A DNA stretch of 63,014 bases, filler included, from 4 parts of 4 records of this genome joined end to end with filler, not necessarily neighbours in it, one strand, 5' to 3'. Counted from the first letter of the whole stretch, positions 5,939-51,886 are shown. Made by a program: numbers and translations. Notes: generated from the sequence alone by a model not told the origin.

Positions 5939-7102
5939 TTGCAACACCCAATATATATAAAAGGCATATCTACAGTTTCTGCTTTGGGAAGCCATCCTGA
6001 TGATATTTGGACTAATTATTTGTCTCAACGCTCTTTTTTAAAATCTAAGAAAATAGATGATATTTCAACATTTGTTGGAGAGCTTTCTAACATAGATAAA
6101 GAACGTGTTGAGCAATTAAAACAATCTGATAAATTATATGCAGAGTTAGATAACTCTGTGTTGTACGCAATGCTATGTGGAAGAGGTTTAATTTTAAAAG
6201 CACCGCTTAACACAACAGATTTTGGAATAAACGTAGGGTCATCTAGAGGTGCCACTACGTTGTTTGAAAATTATCATGAGCAATACATAAAATCTGGACA
6301 AACCTCTACATTAAGCTCACCTACTACTACTTTAGGGAATATATCCAGTTGGCTAGCTCAAGATTTACAAAGCAAAGGCCCTAGGTTTTCTCATAGTATA
6401 ACATGTTCTACAGCATTTCATGCGATATTAAATGGAGTAGCTTGGTTGCAAGCACAAATGGCTGAAGAGTTTATAGTTGGTGGTAGTGAAGCACCATTAA
6501 CTCCTTTTACCATAGCGCAAATGCGAGCTATGAAAATTTATGCTGAGGTTGGTCAGGTAAAAAACCCTAACTATCCAAACCAAGCACTTAACTTAAGTAA
6601 AACGCGAAATTCTATGATTTTAGGTGAAGGTTCTGGTTTAATAACTTTATCTAAAATACAATCTGAACAAAATGTTGGTGAGATTAAAGGGATTGGTTTT
6701 GGAACAGAGACATTAAAACATAGTGCTTCAATTTCTAAAGATGCGGCTTGTATGCAGGCTTCAATGCGTATGGCAATAAAGCAAATAAACCCGAAAGATA
6801 TAGATGTTGTGGTATGCCATGCGCCAGGAACTGTTAAAGGCGATCAAGCTGAAATAAATGCTATTAAAGATGTCTTTGGAGAACATATGCCAGCTGTAAC
6901 TTCAAATAAATGGCAACTAGGTCATACATTTGGAGCTTCAGGAATATTAAGTTTAGAAATGGCGCTTCTTATGCTAAAGCATCAAAAATTTATAGGAGTT
7001 CCTTTTATTGAAAATCAAATTCAACCTAAAAGAATTAAGAACATACTTGTAAATGCTGTAGGTTTTGGCGGAAATTCTGTTTCAATTTTGGTTTCACTTT
7101 AA
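5939..7102 (+). CDS. Beta-ketoacyl synthase (FabF/FabB-like, divergent)
   Basis: Cys-His-His triad motifs: ITCST, HAPGT and GHTFGASG; C-terminal NAVGFGG. Confidence 0.85.
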   Translation: MQHPIYIKGISTVSALGSHPDDIWTNYLSQRSFLKSKKIDDISTFVGELSNIDKERVEQLKQSDKLYAELDNSVLYAMLCGRGLILKAPLNTTDFGINVGSSRGATTLFENYHEQYIKSGQTSTLSSPTTTLGNISSWLAQDLQSKGPRFSHSITCSTAFHAILNGVAWLQAQMAEEFIVGGSEAPLTPFTIAQMRAMKIYAEVGQVKNPNYPNQALNLSKTRNSMILGEGSGLITLSKIQSEQNVGEIKGIGFGTETLKHSASISKDAACMQASMRMAIKQINPKDIDVVVCHAPGTVKGDQAEINAIKDVFGEHMPAVTSNKWQLGHTFGASGILSLEMALLMLKHQKFIGVPFIENQIQPKRIKNILVNAVGFGGNSVSILVSL

Positions 7103-7202
7103 AGCTATGTTAGCATTTAGAGAGAAACTCGTCTAACACCAAGATTATAAAAACTAACCTCTAATTTTTTAGGTAACCCACATTTTCAACTTAACAAACG
7201 TT

Positions 7203-7898
7203 TTGAAAGAACCCCATATAAAAGTCATCATTCCAGCATTTAATGAAGCCAATTCAATTGGTCGTGTTATTGCAGATATTCCCAAACATGTTAATGAGGT
7301 TATTGTGGTTAGTAACAACTCAACAGATAAAACTATTGCCATTGCAGAAAGTGCTGGAGCTACAGTTTTAGAGGAAAACCAAAGAGGTTATGGCTATGCC
7401 TGTTTAAAAGGTTTGGCTTATATAAAAGAAAGTTTGGTAAAGCCAGATATTATAGTTTTTCTAGATGGCGATTATAGTGATTACCCAGAGTATTTAGATG
7501 CCATAGTAAGGCCAATTATTAAGTGCGATGTCGATTTAGTTATTGGTGCTAGGTCAAAAGAGCTTAGAGAAGATGGTAGTATGACTACACCCCAAATCTT
7601 TGGTAACTGGCTAGCAACTCGTTTAATGAAACTCTTTTTTAAAAGTAGATTTACAGACCTTGGTCCTTTTAGAGCCATAAAATATGACACATTACTGGGT
7701 CTTGAGATGGAAGACAAAACTTATGGCTGGACAGTTGAGATGCAACTAAAGGCATTAAAGCAAAGATTGGCATATACAGAAGTTAAAGTGCCGTATAGAA
7801 ACAGAATAGGTGTCTCTAAAATATCAGGCACTTTAAAAGGTGCTATATTTGCTGGCGTTAAAATTTTAGGTTGGATCTTTAAATACAGTTTCAAGTAA
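7203..7898 (+). CDS. GT2 glycosyltransferase, polyprenol-phosphate-sugar synthase (DPM1)-like
   Basis: VIIPAFNE, RGYGYAC, FLDGDYSD and DLGPFRAI motifs. Confidence 0.88.
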   Translation: MKEPHIKVIIPAFNEANSIGRVIADIPKHVNEVIVVSNNSTDKTIAIAESAGATVLEENQRGYGYACLKGLAYIKESLVKPDIIVFLDGDYSDYPEYLDAIVRPIIKCDVDLVIGARSKELREDGSMTTPQIFGNWLATRLMKLFFKSRFTDLGPFRAIKYDTLLGLEMEDKTYGWTVEMQLKALKQRLAYTEVKVPYRNRIGVSKISGTLKGAIFAGVKILGWIFKYSFK

Positions 7899-9370
7899 TG
7901 GACTTGATTATCATTATTATCTACACATTAGCTTTACTGTTAATATTCTTCTACAGTTTGGCGCAGCTCAATCTTTATTTTAATTACTTAAAAGCAAAAA
8001 AGAGTAAACAGGATTGTGAAACCTTCAACTTAAACAATCCACACGAGGTTCCTTATGTTACTATACAACTTCCTTTGTATAATGAAAAATACGTTGTTGA
8101 ACGTTTGTTGAATAATATTGCAACTATAGAGTATCCTAAAGATAGGTTAGAAATACAAGTTTTAGATGACTCAACAGATGAATCTGTTTTGCAAACCAAA
8201 GACCAAATTGAAGAATTAAGAGCTAACGGTCTTGACATTATTCACATAACCAGAGTAAATAGAAAAGGGTTTAAAGCAGGTGCTTTAAAAGAAGGTTTAA
8301 AAATTGCAAAAGGTGAATTTATAGCCATTTTTGATGCAGATTTTTTGCCAAAACCAAACTGGTTACTAAAAACCATTCCCTACTTTAAAGATGAACAAAT
8401 TGGTGTGGTGCAAACCCGTTGGGGACATATTAATAGAAACTATTCTATGCTTACAAAGGTGCAGGCATTTGCACTCGATTTTCATTTTATATTAGAACAA
8501 GTAGGCCGAAATTTTGGAAACCATTTTATAAACTTTAATGGTACAGCAGGCGTTTGGAGAAAATCCTGCATTTTAGATGCTGGTGACTGGCAAGGCGATA
8601 CCTTAACTGAAGATTTAGATTTAAGCTATCGTGCACAGCTAAAAGATTGGAAGTTTAAGTATTTAGAAGATGTTGAGACTCCAGCAGAATTACCGGTTGT
8701 TATAAGTGCAGCAAGATCTCAACAATTTAGATGGAACAAAGGCGCTGCAGAAAACTTTCAGAAACTGTATTGGCGTTTGTTTACAGACAAAACAGTCTCT
8801 GCAAAAACTAAATTTCATAGCTTTTTTCATTTACTTAACAGTAGCATGTTTTTACTAGTATTGTTGGTGGCTATATTAAGTGTACCTGTACTATTTATAA
8901 AAAACAACAATCCAGACTTTAGCTGGTATTTTAATGTTATTGCTTTTTTTGGATTAAGTACACTTATTTTTTTTATAAGCTATTGGCTTACTTACAAAAA
9001 AATTCATGGTGGCGGATTTAAAAATTTTATAAGGTTCATTGGCATGTTCTTTACTTTCTTTTCAGTTGCAATGGGTTTTTCTGTACATAATTCGGTTGCG
9101 GTGATAGAAGGTCACTTAGGAAAGAAATCTGAGTTTGTAAGAACCCCAAAGTTTAATATTAATAGTATTAAAGATTCTTGGAAAGGCAATAAATATTTGA
9201 GTCAAAATGTATCTGGAAACACTATAATTGAGTTGGTTTTAATGCTGTATTTTGGATATGCTATTTATAGTGCATTTACCACAGGAGATTTTGGGCTTAT
9301 TATTTTTCACCTTATGCTTTTTGCAGGATTTGGGTTTGTCGGTCTAAAATCGTTATTTGCAAAAGGCTAA
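7898..9370 (+). CDS. Membrane GT2 of cellulose-synthase-like type
   Basis: QLPLYNE, DDSTD, FKAGAL, DADF, TEDLD and QQFRW motifs plus C-terminal TM helices. Confidence 0.9.
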   Translation: MDLIIIIIYTLALLLIFFYSLAQLNLYFNYLKAKKSKQDCETFNLNNPHEVPYVTIQLPLYNEKYVVERLLNNIATIEYPKDRLEIQVLDDSTDESVLQTKDQIEELRANGLDIIHITRVNRKGFKAGALKEGLKIAKGEFIAIFDADFLPKPNWLLKTIPYFKDEQIGVVQTRWGHINRNYSMLTKVQAFALDFHFILEQVGRNFGNHFINFNGTAGVWRKSCILDAGDWQGDTLTEDLDLSYRAQLKDWKFKYLEDVETPAELPVVISAARSQQFRWNKGAAENFQKLYWRLFTDKTVSAKTKFHSFFHLLNSSMFLLVLLVAILSVPVLFIKNNNPDFSWYFNVIAFFGLSTLIFFISYWLTYKKIHGGGFKNFIRFIGMFFTFFSVAMGFSVHNSVAVIEGHLGKKSEFVRTPKFNINSIKDSWKGNKYLSQNVSGNTIIELVLMLYFGYAIYSAFTTGDFGLIIFHLMLFAGFGFVGLKSLFAKG

Positions 9371-19399: not shown

Positions 19400-19499
19400 N
19401 NNNNNNNNNNNNNNNNNNNNNNNNNNNNNNNNNNNNNNNNNNNTTAATTAATTAANNNNNNNNNNNNNNNNNNNNNNNNNNNNNNNNNNNNNNNNNNNN
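19400..19499. other. Artificial contig linker
   Basis: N44-TTAATTAATTAA-N44, stop codons in all six frames. Confidence 0.98.
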
Positions 19500-41111: not shown

Positions 41112-41211
41112 NNNNNNNNNNNNNNNNNNNNNNNNNNNNNNNNNNNNNNNNNNNNTTAATTAATTAANNNNNNNNNNNNNNNNNNNNNNNNNNNNNNNNN
41201 NNNNNNNNNNN
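41112..41211. other. Artificial contig linker
   Basis: N44-TTAATTAATTAA-N44. Confidence 0.98.
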
Positions 41212-41212
41212 T

Positions 41213-41791
41213 TTAGGGTATCCATTTTCTATTTCTGAAAACTTTCAAATGCGGAATACACACAAAACAATTTCGGAGTCCTTAGAGATACTTCAGGAAA
41301 TATTAAACCTCGCCAATAAAAATGATAAAGAAGTGGTTGCTTACTTATCTATGGGCTTTGGAAATCCGTATGGCGATCCTTGGAATGTAGCAATAGTAGG
41401 GGAGTGGACCGAAAAACTTTCGGCAATGGGGGTAAAAATCCTTTCGCTTAGCGATACAGTTGGAACGTCTACGCCAGATATTATTTCATATTTATTCTCA
41501 AATTTAATTCCAATGTATCCTCATATAGAATTTGGTGCACATCTGCATACTACACCAAGCGCTTGGCATGAAAAAGTGGATGCTGCTTTTAAGGCAGGAT
41601 GTACAAGATTTGATGGAGCTATTCAAGGTTTTGGTGGTTGCCCTATGGCTAAGGATGAGTTAACAGGAAATATGCCAACCGAAAAAATGCTAAGTTATTT
41701 TACTACCGAAAAAATTTCAAGCAATATAAACCCCATGTCTTTTGAAAGCTCCTATAATGAAGCGACAAAAATTTTCACTAAATATCATTAA
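41213..41791 (+). CDS. Hydroxymethylglutaryl-CoA lyase, 5' end cut by the gap
   Basis: SLSDTVG, HLH and GFGGCPMA...GNMPTE motifs; frame is open from 41213. Confidence 0.9.
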   Translation, partial: LGYPFSISENFQMRNTHKTISESLEILQEILNLANKNDKEVVAYLSMGFGNPYGDPWNVAIVGEWTEKLSAMGVKILSLSDTVGTSTPDIISYLFSNLIPMYPHIEFGAHLHTTPSAWHEKVDAAFKAGCTRFDGAIQGFGGCPMAKDELTGNMPTEKMLSYFTTEKISSNINPMSFESSYNEATKIFTKYH

Positions 41792-41792
41792 G

Positions 41793-43316
41793 ATGAATAG
41801 AGTATTGCTCTGTCTTGTTTCTGCAATTTTTTTTAGTAGCTGTTCAACTTTAGATGCAACTAAAGAAACCCAATCTAAAAGTGACGGACTTGTAACCATA
41901 AAGTTTGTACAAGTTAATGATGTGTATGAAATTGCTCCACTAAATGGTGGGGAATACGGAGGAATGGCGCGTGTTGCTCATATTCGCGATTCTATAAAAG
42001 AACAATTTCCAAATACCTATTTGTATATGGCTGGAGATTTTCTAAATCCGTCGCTGTTAGGAACTTTAAAGGTTGACGGAGAAAGGCTTTATGGTAAACA
42101 AATGGTTGAAGTAATGAACGCCATGGAATTTGATTTGGTGGCTTTTGGAAATCATGAATTTGACCTTAGCGAAGCCGATTTACAAAAAAGATTGAATGAA
42201 TCTACCTTTAAATGGACCTCTGCAAATGTGCGTCATGTAACTGAAGAAGGACTTAAGCCTTTTTCAACCAAGGAGCCAATTTCTGATTATGAAATTTTTC
42301 ATGTAAAAGAACCAGACGGGGATGAAATGAAATTTGGAATGATTAGCGTAACATTACCTTCTAATCCAAAAGATTATGTGCATTATGGCGATGTATATAA
42401 AGAAGCTGTTCGCGCAAATAAACTGGCAAGTGAAAAAGCAGATGTGGTTTTTGGTCTTACGCATGTAAGTATTGCAGAGGATAAGGAAATTGCACGCATT
42501 ATCTCGACTATTCCTTTAATTATGGGAGGTCATGAACATAATGCTACGCTTGTTACGGTAGGTGAAACAGCCATTGCAAAGGCAGATGCTAATGCTAAAA
42601 GCGTTTATGTACATACTATTGTTTATAATACAAACACTAAAAAACATAGCCTCCATTCACAACTTGTATTTGTTGATGAAAACACTGCCTCTAATGCAAA
42701 TGTGGAAAAAATTGTTTCTAAATGGAATAATATGTTGGATGAGAAATTAAAGGAGGTTATTGACGATCCCAATAGGATAATATATATGCCTGAAATACCG
42801 TTAGACGGTACAGACAGTGCAAGTAGAGGTATTCAAACAAATTTGGGCGATATTATTACACAAGCAATGGCGTATTCTTTTCAAAATGAGGTAGCTGCAG
42901 CATTGGTAAATGGCGGCTCCATTAGGATTGACGATATGCTTTCTGGTTCAATTACAGCCAAAGATATTTTTAGGGTGTTGCCTTTTGGGGGGGGCATTCT
43001 AAAGGTAGATTTAAAAGGAAGTCTTTTAAAAGAAGTTCTTGATTATGGTGAAGAAAAACGTGGAACTGGAGCTTACTTACAAAGAGATAGTGTTTCTCAA
43101 GATTTAAATGGTGAATGGTTAATTCAAGGAGAGCGAATTTTAGAAGAAAAAGTTTATAGTGTTGCTTTTAGCGATTATTTATTGAAAGGTCTTGATATTC
43201 CTTTTTTAACACCTGATAATAAAGGTGTCGTAAACATTTATTCACCAAAACAAACTGAAATTGCTGCCGATATTCGCAAAGCAATTATTTTCTTTTTAAA
43301 TTCACAAAAAAAGTAA
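41793..43316 (+). CDS. Bifunctional metallophosphatase/5'-nucleotidase lipoprotein
   Basis: Lipobox FFSSC; GDF, GNHEFD, GGHEH and NGGSIR motifs. Confidence 0.92.
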   Translation: MNRVLLCLVSAIFFSSCSTLDATKETQSKSDGLVTIKFVQVNDVYEIAPLNGGEYGGMARVAHIRDSIKEQFPNTYLYMAGDFLNPSLLGTLKVDGERLYGKQMVEVMNAMEFDLVAFGNHEFDLSEADLQKRLNESTFKWTSANVRHVTEEGLKPFSTKEPISDYEIFHVKEPDGDEMKFGMISVTLPSNPKDYVHYGDVYKEAVRANKLASEKADVVFGLTHVSIAEDKEIARIISTIPLIMGGHEHNATLVTVGETAIAKADANAKSVYVHTIVYNTNTKKHSLHSQLVFVDENTASNANVEKIVSKWNNMLDEKLKEVIDDPNRIIYMPEIPLDGTDSASRGIQTNLGDIITQAMAYSFQNEVAAALVNGGSIRIDDMLSGSITAKDIFRVLPFGGGILKVDLKGSLLKEVLDYGEEKRGTGAYLQRDSVSQDLNGEWLIQGERILEEKVYSVAFSDYLLKGLDIPFLTPDNKGVVNIYSPKQTEIAADIRKAIIFFLNSQKK

Positions 43317-43795
43317 TGTTGAAAAAAGTTATAAAAATCACCCTTGTCGTGGCATTAATTGCGTTAGTTGCCATACAATTTTGTCGCCCTGAAAAAAATA
43401 GTGAAGGGTATAAAAGTGTAGCCTTGTTTGAAACTGAAACCAAACCTACACCCGAGGTTGCGGCAATTTTAAAAACAAATTGCTACGATTGTCATAGCAA
43501 TCAAACTACATACCCATGGTATTCTGAAATTGCACCTTTTTCATTTTTCTTAGAGGATCATATTAAAGATGGAAAAAAACATTTTAATGTTTCCGACTGG
43601 AAAAGTTATTCAGTAAAAAAGAAAGAGCACAAACTAGAAGAATTTTTAGAAATGGTGGAAGACGATGAAATGCCATTGCAATCTTACACCTTAATTCATG
43701 GAAATTTATCGGAAGAAGATAAAAAATTATTGCTTCAATGGGCTGGCGTTGCAAGATTGCAATACAAACATCTGCTAGAAGTTTCTTCAAAATAA
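43316..43795 (+). CDS. Haem-binding domain protein (monoheme cytochrome c-like)
   Basis: N-terminal anchor, CYDCH, YPWY and EMP motifs. Confidence 0.88.
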   Translation: MLKKVIKITLVVALIALVAIQFCRPEKNSEGYKSVALFETETKPTPEVAAILKTNCYDCHSNQTTYPWYSEIAPFSFFLEDHIKDGKKHFNVSDWKSYSVKKKEHKLEEFLEMVEDDEMPLQSYTLIHGNLSEEDKKLLLQWAGVARLQYKHLLEVSSK

Positions 43796-43814: not shown

Positions 43815-43912
43815 AAATTTATTTAAATTAAATCTAAATAAATTTGTGAGGTTTCATTCTGACCATTATTTTTGCCGCTGAAAACAAACCTATTTTAATT
43901 CAGTCTAAATAA
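43815..43912 (+). promoter_or_regulatory. Promoter flanked by two Fur-like palindromes
   Basis: Near-perfect 31-bp palindrome at 43815-43845; TTTG at 43843-43846, a 20-nt spacer and TATTTTTG at 43867-43874; second site ATTTTAATTCAGTCTAAAT at 43892-43910. Confidence 0.7.
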
Positions 43913-43919
43913 TATATTG

Positions 43920-45137
43920 ATGAAAAACTTAGTTATTGCAACACTTTTAAGTTCCCTATTTTTTATATCCTGCTCATCTGATGACGATACCCTAGTAGAA
44001 GATAATCTAGTTGAAGCGCCTGCAACATATACATTTTTGAGAGGCGATGAATCTACAGTAAGTTTTAGTGGGCAAACTACTCGAATTTTAATGGCAGGTG
44101 AACTTGCAAATGCGTTTAATGATTTTGATAATGCTACTGAAGCTTCCTTAAAAGCTATGTTTGATCATCAAACTGGCGACAATGACTTTTCGGATGCAGA
44201 TTTAAATGCTTCAGATAAAAACATTCGAAGCAAAACAGCTGCTTCTTATGATTATTTCGCTACAAACACAACTGAAAGTGCTCAGATAAAAGCCACTTTC
44301 GAAAATTATATTTCTTCTCAAATAAATGAAGTTTTCCCTAATACAATGGTTGCAGCAGCACCCGGAGTTGCAGGACAAATTGCTGATGGTACTAAAACGC
44401 GTTACGTAAGTGCAAAAGGGTTAGAGTACAATCAAGCGTTTGCAAAAAGCCTTTTAGGTGCTTTAATGACCGACCAGATTTTAAACAATTATTTAAGCAC
44501 AGCTGTGCTTGATGAGGCAAATAATCGTGAAAATAATGACAACGGAATCACCGAGGAAAACAAACCTTATACAACGATGGAGCATAAGTGGGATGAAGCA
44601 TATGGTTATCTTTATGGAACTTCTGTGAATCCAGAGAATCCAAATTTAACGATTGGTGAGGACGATAAATTTTTAAATGAATATGTAGGTAGAGTAAATG
44701 ATGACTCTGATTTTTCAACCATTGCTGCTGAAATTTTTGATGCTTTTAAATTAGGTAGAGCTGCAATTGTTGCAAAAAACTATGAGGTACGTGATGCACA
44801 AGTTCAGATTATTCGTGAAAAAATTTCTGAAGTAATCGCAATCCGTGGTATTTATTACTTACAAGCTGGTAAGGCAAAAATTAATGAAGGAAACCCTGAA
44901 GGAGCATTCCACGCTTTGTCTGAAGCTTATGGTTTTGTGTATAGTCTTCGTTTTACTAGAAACGCACAAAATACAACACCACTTTTCTCAAAAACGGAAG
45001 TTGATGCGCTTTTAGATATGCTAATGAATTCTGCCGATAATGGTTTTTGGAACATTACACCTGAAACTTTAGATGCTGTATCTGAAGCTATGGCTGCAAA
45101 GTTTAACTTTACTGTGGTTCAAGCGACTAGCATTTAA
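43920..45137 (+). CDS. DUF4856-family lipoprotein
   Basis: Lipobox FISC followed by SSDDD; TVSFSGQTTR and MEHKWDEAYGY motifs. Confidence 0.75.
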   Translation: MKNLVIATLLSSLFFISCSSDDDTLVEDNLVEAPATYTFLRGDESTVSFSGQTTRILMAGELANAFNDFDNATEASLKAMFDHQTGDNDFSDADLNASDKNIRSKTAASYDYFATNTTESAQIKATFENYISSQINEVFPNTMVAAAPGVAGQIADGTKTRYVSAKGLEYNQAFAKSLLGALMTDQILNNYLSTAVLDEANNRENNDNGITEENKPYTTMEHKWDEAYGYLYGTSVNPENPNLTIGEDDKFLNEYVGRVNDDSDFSTIAAEIFDAFKLGRAAIVAKNYEVRDAQVQIIREKISEVIAIRGIYYLQAGKAKINEGNPEGAFHALSEAYGFVYSLRFTRNAQNTTPLFSKTEVDALLDMLMNSADNGFWNITPETLDAVSEAMAAKFNFTVVQATSI

Positions 45138-45158
45138 TTTATATTTGAAAAATATTTT

Positions 45159-45196
45159 AACCAACCGATTTCAAAAATAAAATCGGTTGGTTTTTT
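45159..45196 (+). terminator. Intra-operon terminator-like hairpin after the DUF4856 gene
   Basis: AACCAACCGATTT/AAATCGGTTGGTT stem followed by TTTT. Confidence 0.75.
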
Positions 45197-45216
45197 GAAT
45201 TTTAAAACTATTTAAA

Positions 45217-46338
45217 ATGAATTATATAAAATTTGGAGTACTATGTATTGCAGTGCTAATTTTGGGAGCTTCCTGTTCAACAGATAGCGATAACCCAGAA
45301 GAAGTTCCAAATAATTACGACCGCGGAGCCATGCTTACCAATTGGGCAGATAATATTATTGTCCCTGCGTATACCAGCTTTAACTCTAAAGCTGCTGAAA
45401 TGCAAACAGCAACTGCAAACTTTACAAATTCTCCTTCTTTAGAAAGTTTGCAAAGCCTTCGTAGTGCATGGAAAGATGCGTATGTTTCCTTTCAAAGTGT
45501 TTCTATGTTTGAAATTGGTAAAGCAGAAGAAATTCGTTTTAGAAATAGATTAAACGTATATCCTACCAATTCGTCCAAAATTCAGGAAACAATATTGAAT
45601 GGCACCTATAATTTTGCACTGCCTTCAAATATTGACATTCAAGGATTCCCAGCATTAGATTTTATGCTTAACGGTCTTGCGGAAACTGATGCTGAAATAA
45701 TAGCTTTTTATGTTTCAAACAGCGATGCGGAAGCTTATAAAGCCTATTTAAATTCACTTTCACAAACTATTTTAGATTTAAATACTGAAGTACTTGCTGA
45801 CTGGACAGAAGGATTTCGCGATGCTTTTATAGCGAACATCAGTTCATCTGCTTCTGGTGCTGTTGATAAATTAACTAACGATTATATTTTTTACTTTGAA
45901 AAAGCCCTTCGCGCTGGAAAAGTTGGGATTCCTGCTGGAATTTTCTCGGGAAGTCCGTTGCCAGGAAACGTTGAGGCATTCTATAAAAAAGATATTTCGA
46001 AAGAATTACTTTTGAAAGCAATTGAAGCCAGCGCAAATTTTTTCAATGGAAAAAGCTTTAACGGTACCTCAAACGGAGCAGGATTTAAAACCTATTTAGA
46101 TTATTTGAATACCACCAAAAATGGTGAAAACTTAAGCGGACTTATTAATAGTCAATTTACAATTGCAACTAATAAAGCTAACGAGTTGAATACTAATTTT
46201 GTATCTCAAATTGAAACAGATAATTCAAAAATGCTTGCTGCTTACGATGAACTTCAGCGAATTGTAATTTACTTAAAAGTAGATATGATTCAAGCAATGG
46301 ATATAAGTATAGATTATGTAGATGCAGACGGGGACTAA
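45217..46338 (+). CDS. Imelysin (M75)-like lipoprotein
   Basis: Lipobox GASC; NIIVPAY, LRSAW and QGFPALD motifs; terminal DADGD. Confidence 0.8.
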   Translation: MNYIKFGVLCIAVLILGASCSTDSDNPEEVPNNYDRGAMLTNWADNIIVPAYTSFNSKAAEMQTATANFTNSPSLESLQSLRSAWKDAYVSFQSVSMFEIGKAEEIRFRNRLNVYPTNSSKIQETILNGTYNFALPSNIDIQGFPALDFMLNGLAETDAEIIAFYVSNSDAEAYKAYLNSLSQTILDLNTEVLADWTEGFRDAFIANISSSASGAVDKLTNDYIFYFEKALRAGKVGIPAGIFSGSPLPGNVEAFYKKDISKELLLKAIEASANFFNGKSFNGTSNGAGFKTYLDYLNTTKNGENLSGLINSQFTIATNKANELNTNFVSQIETDNSKMLAAYDELQRIVIYLKVDMIQAMDISIDYVDADGD

Positions 46339-47702
46339 TGTTTGCAACCGTTTCAAAATATCTGAATAAAAACACTGAGGCCGCACCATTAGCGGTCTTT
46401 CGTGTTTTTTTTGGAATTATGATGTTTGCTAGTATCCTACGCTTTTGGGCGAATGGGTGGATTGAAAAACTTTATATCCAGCCAATTTTTTTTTTTAGTT
46501 ATTACGGTTTTGAATGGATTAAACCTATAGGCGATTATACCTATATGTTATTTATTGTCTGCGGAGTTGCATCCCTTTTTGTTGCTATAGGCTATAAATA
46601 CAGAATTTCCATTATCCTCTTTTTTTTAAGTTTTACCTATATAGAGTTGATGGATAAAACCACTTATCTTAATCATTATTATTTTATAAGTTGTATAGGT
46701 TTTTTAATGATTTTTCTTCCTGCCAACGCTTACTTTTCTATTGATGCTTATAAAAATCCGTCTAAAGCTTTTCAGAAAATTCCAAGATGGACAATAGACA
46801 GTATAAAGCTATTATTAGGCATTGTATATTTTTATGCAGGTCTTGCTAAATTAAATAGCGAATGGCTATTTAAGGCAATGCCTCTTAAAATATGGCTTCC
46901 TTCAAAATACGACATACCTTTTTTAGGAAATCTGCTTCAGCAAGAATGGATGCATTATGCCTTTAGTTGGAGTGGTGTAATTTACGATTTAACAATTCCA
47001 TTTCTCCTGCTTTACAAGCCAACACGCTGGTTTGCTTTTGCTTTTGTGGTGATTTTTCATGTGCTTACTCGGGTTTTGTTTCCTATCGGGATGTTTCCGT
47101 TTATTATGATTGTTAGTGCCCTCATTTTCTTTGATGCAGGTATTCATCAGCGAATTATTAAATTTATTTCAAAGCTATTTCGAATAAATTATTTGAAGAT
47201 TTCAGCGATTTCTGAAGGGAAAAATTATAAAATAAAAAGAAATTTTTTATTGCCAATTCTAGCGCTATTTTTTATAGTACAGTTACTTTTGCCGTGGCGT
47301 TATTTAGCGTATCCAAGCGAGCTTTTTTGGAGCGAAGAAGGGTATCGGTTTTCATGGCGCGTAATGTTAATGGAGAAAGCAGGCTATGTTCAATTTAAAG
47401 TTGTGGATAGTAAAAGTGGGAATCGATTTTATGTTGATAACAGCGATTTTCTGTCTCCATTTCAAGAAAAACAAATGAGCACACAGCCTGATTTTATTTT
47501 GGAATATGCACATTATTTAGGAGAGCATTTTGCTTCTCAAGGGCATGAAAATATAGCAATTTATGCAGAGAGTTATGTTGCGCTCAACGGAAGATTAAGT
47601 GAACCATACATAGACCCAACGGTAGATTTGTTGAAAGAAGAAGAGTCTTTTCAACAAAAAAAATGGATTTTACCATTTGGAGGCATAATTAAAGGATTAT
47701 AA
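46338..47702 (+). CDS. HTTM-domain protein, vitamin-K-dependent gamma-carboxylase homologue
   Basis: LAVFR, DKTTYLNHYY, YFYAGLAKLNSEWL and GYRFSWRVML motifs; C-terminal SLNGR-like ALNGR...IDP. Confidence 0.88.
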   Translation: MFATVSKYLNKNTEAAPLAVFRVFFGIMMFASILRFWANGWIEKLYIQPIFFFSYYGFEWIKPIGDYTYMLFIVCGVASLFVAIGYKYRISIILFFLSFTYIELMDKTTYLNHYYFISCIGFLMIFLPANAYFSIDAYKNPSKAFQKIPRWTIDSIKLLLGIVYFYAGLAKLNSEWLFKAMPLKIWLPSKYDIPFLGNLLQQEWMHYAFSWSGVIYDLTIPFLLLYKPTRWFAFAFVVIFHVLTRVLFPIGMFPFIMIVSALIFFDAGIHQRIIKFISKLFRINYLKISAISEGKNYKIKRNFLLPILALFFIVQLLLPWRYLAYPSELFWSEEGYRFSWRVMLMEKAGYVQFKVVDSKSGNRFYVDNSDFLSPFQEKQMSTQPDFILEYAHYLGEHFASQGHENIAIYAESYVALNGRLSEPYIDPTVDLLKEEESFQQKKWILPFGGIIKGL

Positions 47703-47724
47703 AAGAAGTTTTAAGAAAAGTAAA

Positions 47725-50166
47725 ATGATTGGATTTTATAAAAATTGCATACGGATTATTTTCTTTTTTATCAGTATTTCAGCAGTTGCGCAATTTTCTG
47801 TTTCAGGAAAAGTTGTTTCTGAAATAGGGAATAAGCCTATTGCATATGCCGAAATTTATATTATTTCCATAGGAAAATCTACCATTGCAGATGCTTCTGG
47901 GAATTATGAATTCACAAAGATTCCTACTGGAACTTATGAATTTGCCATTTTCAATATGGAATATGAAGTCTTGAAAAAGAATTTAACAATATCGCAAAAC
48001 ACAACACTAAATTTTGAATTGAAACTTTTAGGCGAGCAACTTTCTGAAGTAGTTATTACAAAAAGGAAAGAAGAAATTTTTGCAATTCGAAGTTTAAAAC
48101 AAGTAGAAGGCACCGCTATTTACGCAGGAAAAAAGAGCGAAGTTGTGATGATGGATAATCTTACAACAAACACGGCTACAAATAATGCGCGTCAAATTTA
48201 TGCGCAAGTAGTGGGCTTAAATATTTATGAAAATAACGATGGCGGTTTACAGCTTAATATTGGCGGTCGTGGATTGAACCCGAATAGGACTTCAAATTTT
48301 AACACACGCCAAAATGGATACGATATTTCGGCAGATGTTTTGGGTTATCCGGAGAGTTATTACACCCCTCCAGCCGATGCAATTAGCGAGATTGAAGTGG
48401 TTCGTGGCGCGGCTTCACTGCAATATGGAACACAATTTGGTGGCCTTATAAATTTTAAATTAAAAGAACCGAATAAAAACAAAAAGATTGAGTTGATTTC
48501 ACGTCAGTCGTTGGGTTCGTATGAGCTTTACAACAGTTTTAATAGTTTAAGCGGAACGGTTGGAAAAGTTGGTTATTACGCCTATTACAATTATAAAACG
48601 GGTAAAGATTTTCGTCCAAACTCACAATTTGATTCACATAATGCGTATGCACATATAGATTATAGTTTTTCTGAAGCTACAAAAATTGCTTTTGAAATGA
48701 GCTATCTGGATTATTTGGCACAGCAACCTGGTGGCTTAACCGATAAGCTATTTGAAGAAGATCCAACGTTTAGCAATCGTACCCGAAACTGGTTTAAAAT
48801 AGATTGGAAGCTGTATTCATTGCGTTTGGATCATTCTTTTTCTGAAAAAACAGATTTTAGTATAAATTTATTTGCGCTTGATGCTGCTCGAGAATCAGTT
48901 GGTTTTCGTGAAAACCGTGTTTCTCAAGAAGACAATTTGGAGGAACCAAGAGAATTAATTTCAGGAAAATTTAAAAATTGGGGAGCGGAAGTTAGATTGT
49001 TAACGCGCTATACTTTATTCAACAAAGAAAATACAATTCTTTTCGGTGGAAAATACTATCAATCTAACAATAGTGAACGTCAAGGTCCAGGAACCAATGG
49101 GGTTGATGCCGATTTCAGTTTTGCTTCAGAAGAATTTCCTAATTATGCACGCCAAAGCGATTTTACGTTTCCAAACCTAAATTTTGCTCTTTTTGGTGAA
49201 AATATTTTCAATATAACTTCAAAATTTTCAATTACGCCAGGATTTCGTTTCGAATACATAAAAACAAAAAGCGAGGGGGAATACAAAAATATTATACTTG
49301 ATTTGGCTGGGAATCCTATTTTAAATGAAACCCTTACTGATAATCGTGATTTTCCGCGTGCCTTTATGTTATTGGGTGTTGGGTTAAGTTATAAAGCAAC
49401 AAAATATGTAGAGGTTTATGGAAATTTGAGTTTAAATTACCGCTCCGTAACCTTCAATGATATACGTGTGGTTAGCCCAACATTTGTGGTGGATCCAAAT
49501 ATTACGGACGAAAATGGGTTTACATTTGATCTTGGTGCTCGCGGAAGGTTGGGCAAGTATGTTTCGTATGATGTTGGTGGTTTTTTTCTCAGTTATAACA
49601 ACCGTCTAGGTGTTATTGGCCGTGCAGGAAGTATAAATCCGTATGAACGCTTTCGCACCAATATTGGTGATGCCGTAACTTATGGATTGGAAAGCTTTGT
49701 GGATTGGAATATATTAGAAACTTTTAATGGAGGAAACAATTTTAGGCTAAATACCTTTGTGAATCTTGCGTATACTGAAAGCGAATATATTTCTTCAAAA
49801 GAAGAAAATGTAGTTGGAAAGCAAGTTGAGTTTATTCCGAAGATAAATTTAAAAACTGGGTTGCATTTTGGGTATAAAAATTTCTTAGGAAGTTTTCAGT
49901 ATACCTATTTGAGTGAGCAATTTACCGATGCTACAAATGCAGAGCGGGACTTCACCGATCAAAGTGGAATTAAAGGCGAAATACCTGCTTATGATATTTT
50001 AGACCTTTCATTATCATACAGTTTTAGCCGTTTTAAAATTGAAAGCGGAGTAAATAATGTTTTAGATAATAGTTATTTTACTCGTAGAGCTACAGGATAC
50101 CCTGGCCCAGGAATACTCCCTAGCCAACCACGAACATGGTATGCTACGCTACAAATAAAAATTTAA
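47725..50166 (+). CDS. TonB-dependent receptor (FecA-like) with N-terminal carboxypeptidase-regulatory-like domain
   Basis: LSEVVI TonB-box region, IEVVRGAASLQYG plug motif, C-terminal NNVLD..YF beta strand. Confidence 0.93.
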   Translation: MIGFYKNCIRIIFFFISISAVAQFSVSGKVVSEIGNKPIAYAEIYIISIGKSTIADASGNYEFTKIPTGTYEFAIFNMEYEVLKKNLTISQNTTLNFELKLLGEQLSEVVITKRKEEIFAIRSLKQVEGTAIYAGKKSEVVMMDNLTTNTATNNARQIYAQVVGLNIYENNDGGLQLNIGGRGLNPNRTSNFNTRQNGYDISADVLGYPESYYTPPADAISEIEVVRGAASLQYGTQFGGLINFKLKEPNKNKKIELISRQSLGSYELYNSFNSLSGTVGKVGYYAYYNYKTGKDFRPNSQFDSHNAYAHIDYSFSEATKIAFEMSYLDYLAQQPGGLTDKLFEEDPTFSNRTRNWFKIDWKLYSLRLDHSFSEKTDFSINLFALDAARESVGFRENRVSQEDNLEEPRELISGKFKNWGAEVRLLTRYTLFNKENTILFGGKYYQSNNSERQGPGTNGVDADFSFASEEFPNYARQSDFTFPNLNFALFGENIFNITSKFSITPGFRFEYIKTKSEGEYKNIILDLAGNPILNETLTDNRDFPRAFMLLGVGLSYKATKYVEVYGNLSLNYRSVTFNDIRVVSPTFVVDPNITDENGFTFDLGARGRLGKYVSYDVGGFFLSYNNRLGVIGRAGSINPYERFRTNIGDAVTYGLESFVDWNILETFNGGNNFRLNTFVNLAYTESEYISSKEENVVGKQVEFIPKINLKTGLHFGYKNFLGSFQYTYLSEQFTDATNAERDFTDQSGIKGEIPAYDILDLSLSYSFSRFKIESGVNNVLDNSYFTRRATGYPGPGILPSQPRTWYATLQIKI

Positions 50167-50170
50167 AACA

Positions 50171-50419
50171 TTAGGCTGAAGCATTTTGCGGAGCCCAATG
50201 CGAACACAACATTCCAGGAGCTGCTTTTTGCGGATTTGCACATGTTGGTCCTTGGTATCGTGCACAGCTTACACAGTTTGGGTCGTCTTTTAACGCAGCT
50301 TTCATATTAAAACTATCGCATGTATAACTTGTGTCTACTTGTACTCCATGTACTTTGCAAAGTTTGTTTTCAAGTAAATTTTCGCAGTTTATACAACTAT
50401 TTCCTAATCTGATAGACAT
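50171..50419 (-). CDS. Small 8-Cys protein with two CxxC-x7/8-C-x11/12-C repeats
   Basis: 82-aa ORF with internal duplication; convergent with the TonB receptor gene. Confidence 0.7.
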   Translation of the reverse strand: MSIRLGNSCINCENLLENKLCKVHGVQVDTSYTCDSFNMKAALKDDPNCVSCARYQGPTCANPQKAAPGMLCSHWAPQNASA

Positions 50420-51786: not shown

Positions 51787-51886
51787 NNNNNNNNNNNNNN
51801 NNNNNNNNNNNNNNNNNNNNNNNNNNNNNNTTAATTAATTAANNNNNNNNNNNNNNNNNNNNNNNNNNNNNNNNNNNNNNNNNNNN
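51787..51886. other. Artificial contig linker
   Basis: N44-TTAATTAATTAA-N44; abrupt GC increase afterwards. Confidence 0.98.

Follow-up and report, generated by a model that had tools for sequence, protein, structure and literature searches.

In a stretch of DNA of 63,014 nucleotides, called the window here, a homologue of the human vitamin K-dependent gamma-carboxylase GGCX was found encoded in a marine flavobacterium's four-gene cassette that very likely serves iron uptake under iron starvation. The cassette genes, for a DUF4856 lipoprotein, an imelysin-like lipoprotein, the GGCX homologue (termed the HTTM protein) and a TonB-dependent receptor, all lie on the plus strand between 43917 and 50166, as seen from the listing of open reading frames (ORFs) and from Pfam. 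By domains, sequence and fold the HTTM protein is a member of the GGCX family, and it is probably an active quinol- and O2-dependent enzyme. We tentatively propose that this enzyme, using menaquinol and O2, carboxylates the exported lipoproteins in transit. The window consists of four contigs joined by N-runs (19400-19499, 41112-41211, 51787-51886), and the cassette is located on the contig spanning 41212-51786, which has a GC content of about 0.32-0.37. The relevant features are the following.

43821-43839, no strand: putative operator, a 19-bp Fur-box-like palindrome between the arms 43815-43825 and 43835-43845
43839-43846, plus strand: promoter-like -7 element, read from the sequence, abutting the Fur-like box
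43917-45137, plus strand: DUF4856 lipoprotein (PF16148, E 1e-146; lipobox, mature start C-SSDDD)
45159-45192, plus strand: terminator-like hairpin with T-run between the DUF4856 and imelysin genes (13-15 pairs)
45217-46338, plus strand: imelysin-like lipoprotein of the IPPA type (PF09375, E 1.4e-24, 87.6 bits versus a cut-off of 23.5; lipobox)
46338-47702, plus strand: HTTM/GGCX homologue of the inner membrane, 454 amino acids (PF05090, 2.7e-81; VKGC_lumenal_dom PF22777, 4.6e-61)
47725-50166, plus strand: TonB-dependent receptor (Pfam CarboxypepD_reg, Plug and beta-barrel domains)
43316-43795, plus strand: membrane-anchored Haem_bd (CxxCH) protein outside the Fur-boxed unit (PF14376, E 1.2e-44)

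The four genes, their order, the overlap of the imelysin stop codon with the HTTM start codon (TAATG) and the palindrome at the promoter had all been described in an earlier note on this DNA, and ORFs, Pfam and the sequence itself agreed with that description throughout. The HTTM protein is the sole inner-membrane protein of the cassette. Judged by its Plug and barrel Pfam domains the last gene product is a TonB-dependent receptor; it reached 134.2 bits against the siderophore-receptor subfamily TIGR01783, below the cut-off of 223.5, and E 9e-31 against the FecA model, again below that model's cut-off.

The relation of the HTTM protein to GGCX was seen at all levels of comparison. Both Pfam domains scored above their gathering scores (273.4 bits for PF05090 and 205.7 bits for PF22777, cut-off 27.7). 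In a phmmer search of the solved structures human GGCX was the only match (E 3e-44), with residues 8-447 of the query corresponding to GGCX 54-505 in full-length numbering. An AlphaFold2 (AF2) model built on 40 homologues (pLDDT 90.7) was compared with known structures by Foldseek, and the 16 best matches were all GGCX, with E-values down to 2.8e-22, a query-normalised TM score of 0.83 and 24-26% identity. Human GGCX (PDB 9l6q, 9bvk, 9wfc) thus shares with the window protein the architecture of HTTM and luminal domains, together with the equivalents of Lys218, Asn159, His160, Trp223, Asp263, Phe286, Phe294, Phe299, Tyr395 and Arg476. It differs in having 758 residues, while the 454 residues of the window protein end near GGCX residue 512, and further in that the cofactor of the bacterial enzyme would be menaquinol and its gene stands in a probable Fur-type iron operon.

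Residues were mapped to GGCX by counting by hand along the HMMER alignment. DKTTYLNHYY (residues 106-115) carries H113, the equivalent of His160; YFYAGLAKLNSEWL (residues 164-177) carries K171, the equivalent of Lys218; and GYRFSWRVML (residues 335-344) corresponds to GGCX 394-403, with Y336 in the place of Tyr395. The earlier note had assigned these three motifs to the segments with His160, the catalytic Lys218 and the glutamate-binding region, and this assignment was right: the catalytic residues align. Conservation was tabulated for 154 distinct cassette-type homologues with an identity of 41% or more to the window protein, using residue roles as given in two cryo-EM papers (PMC12589487 and PMC12647623). 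The equivalents of Lys218, Trp223, Asp263, Phe294, Phe299 and Trp399 are found in 154/154 homologues, and those of Asn159, His160, Gly259, Phe286, His287 and Met402 in 153/154. At the position of Tyr395 there are 114 Y, 39 F and 1 C, and the Tyr425 equivalent is retained in 99/154. The counterparts of Lys218 and Asp263, K171 and D217 in the window protein, are also kept in 11/11 paralogue sequences. The pocket for the Glu side chain and CO2 is formed by N112, H113, W176, F253 and Y336 (Asn159, His160, Trp223, Phe299 and Tyr395 in GGCX). As described in PMC12647623, the GGCX mutants N159A, H160A, W223A, F299A and Y395A lose carboxylase activity; the window protein has all five of these residues. 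The same paper reports conservation of the CO2-fixing residues among bacterial orthologues, with MloH cited. Five of the six naphthoquinone-pocket residues are kept (Phe286, Phe294, Phe299, Val210, Trp223), the sixth, Met401, being Val in the cassette clades; further changes are Asn290 to Thr and His404 to Met. By this alignment, the protein retains an intact catalytic core for deprotonating the quinol, trapping CO2 and binding the carboxylate, but not the substrate-docking apparatus of the vertebrate enzyme.

Only one homologue has lost N159, H160, G259, H287 and M402, and this is an orphan copy without cassette partners. The estimate that the cassette enzyme is active is based on the conserved residues together with this decay. 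The orphan copy (L056 in contig G019:C17, HTTM gene at 6995-8365) is 54% identical to the window protein and lies between IMPDH and HMGL-like genes, as on the cassette's contig in the window, with no lipoprotein or receptor genes alongside; its degenerate active site reads N159S, H160A, G259F, H287Q and M402S.

The assembly from which the window was taken is outside the genome samples used, and statements at the genome level rest on relatives. In the family sample (101 genomes, one per genus) an HTTM match was found in 81 genomes: a copy at least 53% identical in 28 (two as fragments), a 44-46% identical copy in 3 and a 33-39% identical paralogue in most. After leaving out G027, G045 and G014 (short contig or fragments), the order imelysin, HTTM, receptor was found in 25/25 family loci with long flanks, and DUF4856 stood in front in 24/25, the remaining locus lacking DUF4856 only. 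The three loci of the 44-46% group showed a second architecture of IrpA-type imelysin, di-haem DHOR, IPPA-type imelysin and HTTM. Using a threshold of E <= 1e-90 for a phylum sample of 301 genomes, each at least 90% complete, matches were obtained in 55 genomes of many families. In 47 further loci from this sample, imelysin preceded HTTM in 46 and was followed by HTTM and receptor in 45; DUF4856 was seen by tblastn in 34/47, of which loci 27 had flanks of only 1.5 kb. Contigs of named genomes contained at least 593 related stretches. Of the best 80, in which gene order was read, 77 have imelysin, HTTM and receptor in succession and 71 have all four genes in order. These 80 stem from Aequorivita, Mesonia, Salegentibacter, Aquimarina, Polaribacter, Tenacibaculum, Kordia, Zobellia and Flavobacterium, and also from Gracilimonas, Rhodohalobacter, Ekhidna, Roseivirga, Cyclobacteriaceae, Saprospirales and Chitinophagales. 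Synteny is retained down to 42% HTTM identity across many families. The HTTM gene is conserved with its partner genes in all three surveys, as the reading of the earlier note presupposed, and the cassette is widespread in Bacteroidota and frequent in marine Flavobacteriaceae.

Two further observations concern the distribution of HTTM genes. The cassette HTTM proteins of the Balneolales type (L150, L154 and L161, from Rhodohalobacter and Gracilimonas; family f27) are 65-68% identical to that of the window, which is as close as many Flavobacteriaceae, and this identity hints at lateral transfer of the cassette. The gene of the 33-39% paralogue (L060, L061, L064, L069; e.g., L069:6998-8341) overlaps the end of ribF and is often found near serS or near metalloproteases with a type IX secretion system (T9SS) tail; the protein keeps Lys218, Asn158, Asn159 and His160 and has His at the position of Tyr395.

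Several lines of evidence connect the cassette with iron. The 19-mer of the window matches the Fur-box consensus of Riemerella (PMC5609570) at 15/19 positions in forward and 16/19 in reverse orientation. In 22/23 cassettes the 160 bp preceding the DUF4856 start contained a match of at least 15/19, and in 20/23 one of at least 16/19, while 20/880 random 160-bp windows of the same loci reached 15/19. Two loci, L041 and L043, were left out of this count and of the DUF4856 alignment, since the start-codon call had given them an N-terminal extension. Because a Fur-like box precedes the cassettes so much more often than expected from the random windows, the palindrome-flanked promoter of the earlier note is regarded as a conserved putative Fur-type operator. 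In Table 4 of PMC5609570, Riemerella anatipestifer RAYM_09779-09794 appear as consecutive genes for a TonB-dependent receptor, a vitamin K-dependent gamma-carboxylase, an imelysin lipoprotein and a hypothetical protein. All four showed raised expression under iron restriction as well as in the fur mutant and are listed by the authors as Fur-regulated; according to the same table they were still iron-responsive in the fur mutant (PMC5609570). By annotation this is the same gene string as that of the window, with RAYM_09794 matched to DUF4856 by position only. In PMC5609570 these genes are a table entry, and the carboxylase is not discussed. With this iron- and Fur-responsive gene string (PMC5609570) the iron-uptake context proposed in the earlier note holds.

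As for transcript architecture, a sigma-70-type promoter scan was uninformative (33 sites versus 28.3 expected), and the -7 label given to 43839-43846 follows the Bacteroidetes -7 consensus. A hairpin 3' of DUF4856 (window 45138-45216 and homologous spacers) has at least 10 uninterrupted pairs in its stem in 20/23 loci. In 14/23 loci, the window not among them, a motif resembling the Bacteroidetes -7 box comes next, and in 4/23 a further Fur-like site (at least 15/19) does. The conserved hairpin, with the -7-like motif or the further Fur-like site behind it, suggests that DUF4856 can be transcribed as a unit apart from imelysin-HTTM-receptor. In one locus (L051:9592-10058) the spacer between DUF4856 and imelysin has grown to 467 bp, folds strongly and contains internally repeated GC-rich units, and it looks like the insertion of a repeat element.

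In 23 DUF4856 sequences E222-H223-x-W225-D226-E227 and H332/E336 are invariant. The window protein scored 23.3 bits against NF038033 (FEA1-related lipoprotein, NCBIfam), below the cut-off of 250, and sub-threshold FEA1-related matches were obtained for 15/23 members (best E 1.2e-8), so that the likeness to FEA1, as judged from these profiles, is a distant one only. A comparison of DUF4856 with the imelysin profile by hhalign gave a probability of 90% (E 1.6e-6, 84 columns). The AF2 model is helical (pLDDT 90.4); Foldseek found nothing for it in the PDB at E <= 0.001, and the profile found nothing below E 3 among PDB sequences. In a wide structure search (VIA) helical bundles of the catenin/vinculin type came out best (Z 6.9), with imelysin 3n8u at rank 45 (Z 4.5), a result that is uninformative for a helical protein. 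Given its likeness to FEA1 and its conserved His/Glu/Asp cluster, DUF4856 is a likely candidate for an Fe(III)-binding lipoprotein.

The imelysin can be assigned to the IPPA family from its profile, which matches PDB 3pf0 (Psychrobacter IPPA) end to end (positions 36-372, E 2.8e-18). Its motif region (G143/A146) is without His, and it ends in an invariant DGD, as 3pf0 does. Among 29 aligned sequences E228, K235 and D371-G372-D373 are invariant; L036, truncated by its start call, was left out of this alignment (A1). The DxDGD-COOH tail was considered as an HTTM-specific target and ruled out, the same tail being present in HTTM-less cassettes and in 3pf0.

Both lipoproteins have a mature start that is C-S-(S/T)-D-rich. 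SDDDD and SDDFE are described as surface-export signals of Bacteroidetes (PMC5080379), and by this resemblance both N-termini are probably of the surface-export type, with DUF4856 probably exposed at the cell surface. In the earlier note the acidic lipoproteins had been put forward as possible Gla (gamma-carboxyglutamate) substrates. For this part no support was obtained: the N-terminal acidity is explained without Gla because the surface-export signals (PMC5080379) fit, the linkers have no conserved Glu, and the acidic N-termini were ruled out as Gla sites.

From these data we propose the following mechanism. A Fur-repressed, TonB-dependent iron-acquisition cassette would have two lipoproteins, DUF4856 and the IPPA-type imelysin, serving the receptor. 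At the periplasmic face of the inner membrane, the GGCX-family enzyme would use menaquinol and O2, with CO2 or bicarbonate, for generating the strong base typical of the family. Given the surface-export N-termini, an inner-membrane enzyme could meet the lipoproteins only in transit, and it would act on the exported proteins of the cassette during their passage of the inner membrane, as GGCX does on secretory proteins in the endoplasmic reticulum. The translationally coupled imelysin would be the first candidate substrate, and the carboxylate of a Glu or Asp side chain would be converted to a malonate-type chelating residue. The step would be accessory rather than indispensable. We rank protein modification first because conservation of the carboxylate/CO2 pocket speaks for a carboxylate as substrate, because the HTTM gene is translationally coupled to the imelysin gene, and because carboxylated or hydroxylated acidic residues would be better Fe(III) ligands, which fits the two enzymes found in the HTTM slot (see below). 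A menA gene was found in 5/5 related genomes.

A number of observations weigh against protein carboxylation. No product of the enzyme was seen in this analysis of sequences and predicted structures. The HTTM protein fails the features of propeptide-directed protein carboxylation and of a VKOR-driven cycle. Its chain ends at about GGCX residue 512 (the alignment stops at 505, with 7 residues left), and the region with S510/R513, I532 and the propeptide-clamping Arch helices is absent. Substrate contacts are changed (Lys217 to Ala, Asn158 to Leu, Arg436 to Gln), and the Tyr395 equivalent is F in the 39 homologues mentioned above. VKOR (PF07884) was found in 0/5 related cassette-carrying genomes, each 99% complete, compared to 3/14 known genomes as control. 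In the alignments of DUF4856 (23 sequences) and imelysin (29 sequences) there is no conserved Glu-rich disordered segment. The C-terminal DGD of the imelysin is family-wide, including Psychrobacter IPPA and the HTTM-less cassettes. The 33-39% paralogue next to ribF is widespread in the family and stands away from iron genes. The Leptospira orthologue, in work ascribed to Rishavy and colleagues in 2005, reportedly epoxidises vitamin K without carboxylating test substrates.

Further such points come from the contents of the HTTM slot. In G050 the slot is empty, and in G004, a 99%-complete genome with the cassette, no HTTM match was found; an FA_hydroxylase gene adjoins the cassette of G004. In G022, G082 and Tenacibaculum finnmarkense the slot is occupied by an FA_hydroxylase (PF04116), a di-iron enzyme unable to carboxylate. 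The orders are DUF4856, imelysin, FA_hydroxylase, receptor in G022 (L203) and IrpA, DHOR, imelysin, FA_hydroxylase in G082 (L120); T. finnmarkense has FA_hydroxylase between imelysin and receptor, and HTTM after the receptor. The remaining loci of the 170 searched had no FA_hydroxylase match; nearly all of them show the imelysin-HTTM adjacency. These cassettes have the same lipoproteins, receptor and slot as that of the window; they are divergent in sequence, with an identity to the window's counterparts of 27% for the imelysin of L203 and 38% for its DUF4856. The slot is therefore either empty or taken by one of two membrane-bound, O2-using enzymes that are unrelated to each other. In imelysins from HTTM-less loci all conserved acidic positions are retained, among them E228 and the DGD tail, and no conserved acidic residue differs between HTTM-linked (29) and HTTM-less (3) imelysins.

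The same cassettes bear on another reading, which we consider possible though rather unlikely. Working like the Leptospira-type epoxidase or MloH, the enzyme might oxygenate or carboxylate a membrane lipid, a quinone or a small molecule needed for iron capture, with FA_hydroxylase in an analogous role in the sister cassettes. FA_hydroxylase enzymes act on lipids, and this PF04116 enzyme takes the very HTTM slot in G022, G082 and T. finnmarkense and is absent from the remaining loci among the 170. The absent propeptide clamp and the housekeeping paralogue outside any iron context point in the same direction, as does MloH, whose substrate is described as a non-protein intermediate (PMC12647623). 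Set against this, the cassette has no genes for biosynthesis or export of a chelator, this reading does not explain why HTTM is so closely coupled in translation to imelysin, and no candidate substrate can be named.

A quinol-linked redox step, the second option of the earlier note, is possible but unlikely. Here, the HTTM protein would bind menaquinol at the periplasmic face and pass electrons to the imported iron or a carrier, possibly via the neighbouring Haem_bd cytochrome or the di-haem DHOR, for reductive release to a generic Fe(II) importer; it would then be the inner-membrane component otherwise lacking in EfeU-less imelysin operons. Outer-membrane imelysin operons without EfeU are described by Xu et al. 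(PMC3143127). The HTTM protein is the only cassette protein of the inner membrane, its quinol pocket and Lys218 are conserved, and the lack of VKOR would be no obstacle if the epoxide is not made. A Haem_bd homologue adjoins the cassette in 9/25 family loci and 14/80 named loci (4-kb flanks). HTTM follows IrpA, di-haem DHOR and imelysin in the second architecture, and IrpA-DHOR clusters are found beside the cassette in several loci. However, we know of no GGCX-family member that is a reductase, and the alternative slot enzyme, an O2-activating di-iron hydroxylase, is likewise not of the reductase type. A redox role would leave the conservation of the CO2/carboxylate pocket (N159, H160, F299, Y395) without a reason, and the surface-export-type signals of the lipoproteins make a stable inner-membrane complex unlikely. 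It is most improbable that HTTM is non-catalytic in iron uptake, as a scaffold or a hitch-hiking gene: the cassette does survive without it in G050 and G004, but the catalytic residues are kept in 153-154/154 cassette copies and decayed only in the orphan copy, and synteny persists down to 42% identity across many families.

Returning to protein carboxylation, a precedent is MloH of the malonomycin pathway of Streptomyces, a bacterial HTTM enzyme described as carboxylating an aspartyl residue (PMC12647623; bioRxiv 10.64898/2026.08.19.745780). The likeness is by description only, and MloH differs in belonging to an antibiotic gene cluster and in acting on an intermediate of polyketide synthase-nonribosomal peptide synthetase (PKS-NRPS) origin; it is also described as fused to a DUF5819-like region (bioRxiv 10.64898/2026.08.19.745780). 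The Leptospira orthologue is a further bacterial GGCX homologue with the catalytic Lys, and the glutamyl carboxylase homologue of L. interrogans receives a bare mention in PMC4555120. Among iron systems, the Fur-regulated imelysin operons of Pseudomonas aeruginosa (PA4370-PA4373) and Vibrio cholerae (VC1264-VC1266) and EfeUOB share with the cassette an IPPA-type second imelysin in which the His of GxHxxE is replaced and the C terminus is DGD. Fur control and a role in iron uptake are reported for the imelysin operons (PMC3143127). The window cassette has DUF4856, a TonB-dependent receptor and HTTM instead; no di-haem DUF1111/EfeB gene and no EfeU were found on its contig (41212-51786) among ORFs and Pfam matches, and DHOR (PF06537) is confined to the second architecture and to neighbouring genes at other loci.

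Some neighbouring features were also recorded. Directly upstream of the cassette (41742-43795) lie a gene for a 5'-nucleotidase-like lipoprotein, whose stop overlaps the next start, and the gene for the Haem_bd CxxCH membrane protein; in several genera the cassette is likewise flanked by this pair or by Haem_bd alone, on the upstream side or behind the receptor. Just 3' of the receptor gene, on the minus strand (50171-50419), there is an ORF for a Cys-rich protein of 82 amino acids without a Pfam match, and homologues 38-83% identical were detected by tblastn near the cassette in 11/170 loci. The last contig of the window (from 51887) has a GC content of 0.53-0.57, compared to 0.32-0.41 in the others, and carries rpoD-like and dnaG-like genes as read from translations; it may come from a different organism.

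In the literature, with a search light on subscription journals and without supplements, no paper was found with "DUF4856" and none with both "HTTM" and "imelysin". Papers with "HTTM domain" included none on an iron-cassette context, and "gamma-carboxylase" together with "imelysin" led only to the Riemerella table (PMC5609570). The general idea of bacterial carboxylases is already in print; the iron-cassette context was not found in print. Bacterial homologues of the vitamin K-dependent carboxylase are common, and among the papers found only MloH has an assigned reaction and for none is a protein substrate known. The working of imelysin-type iron systems is described as unsolved (PMC3143127). 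Both problems come together in this small and probably iron-regulated cassette, which is found across the phylum and offers a short list of candidate substrates. Cassettes with the di-iron hydroxylase or an empty slot are a natural control, and the question is directly testable in culturable marine flavobacteria; carriers among the named loci include Zobellia, Christiangramia, Salegentibacter, Kordia algicida and Tenacibaculum species. A broader and doubtful extension would be that Bacteroidota install chelating residues post-translationally in surface iron-capture lipoproteins as these cross the inner membrane, with HTTM making Gla or carboxy-Asp and the di-iron hydroxylase hydroxylated acidic residues. 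As the cassette is frequent in marine Flavobacteriaceae, the finding may bear on iron acquisition in the sea. If carboxylation of the cassette lipoproteins is true, it would provide the first natural protein substrate of a bacterial vitamin K-dependent carboxylase, and with it a new route to Fe(III) sites.

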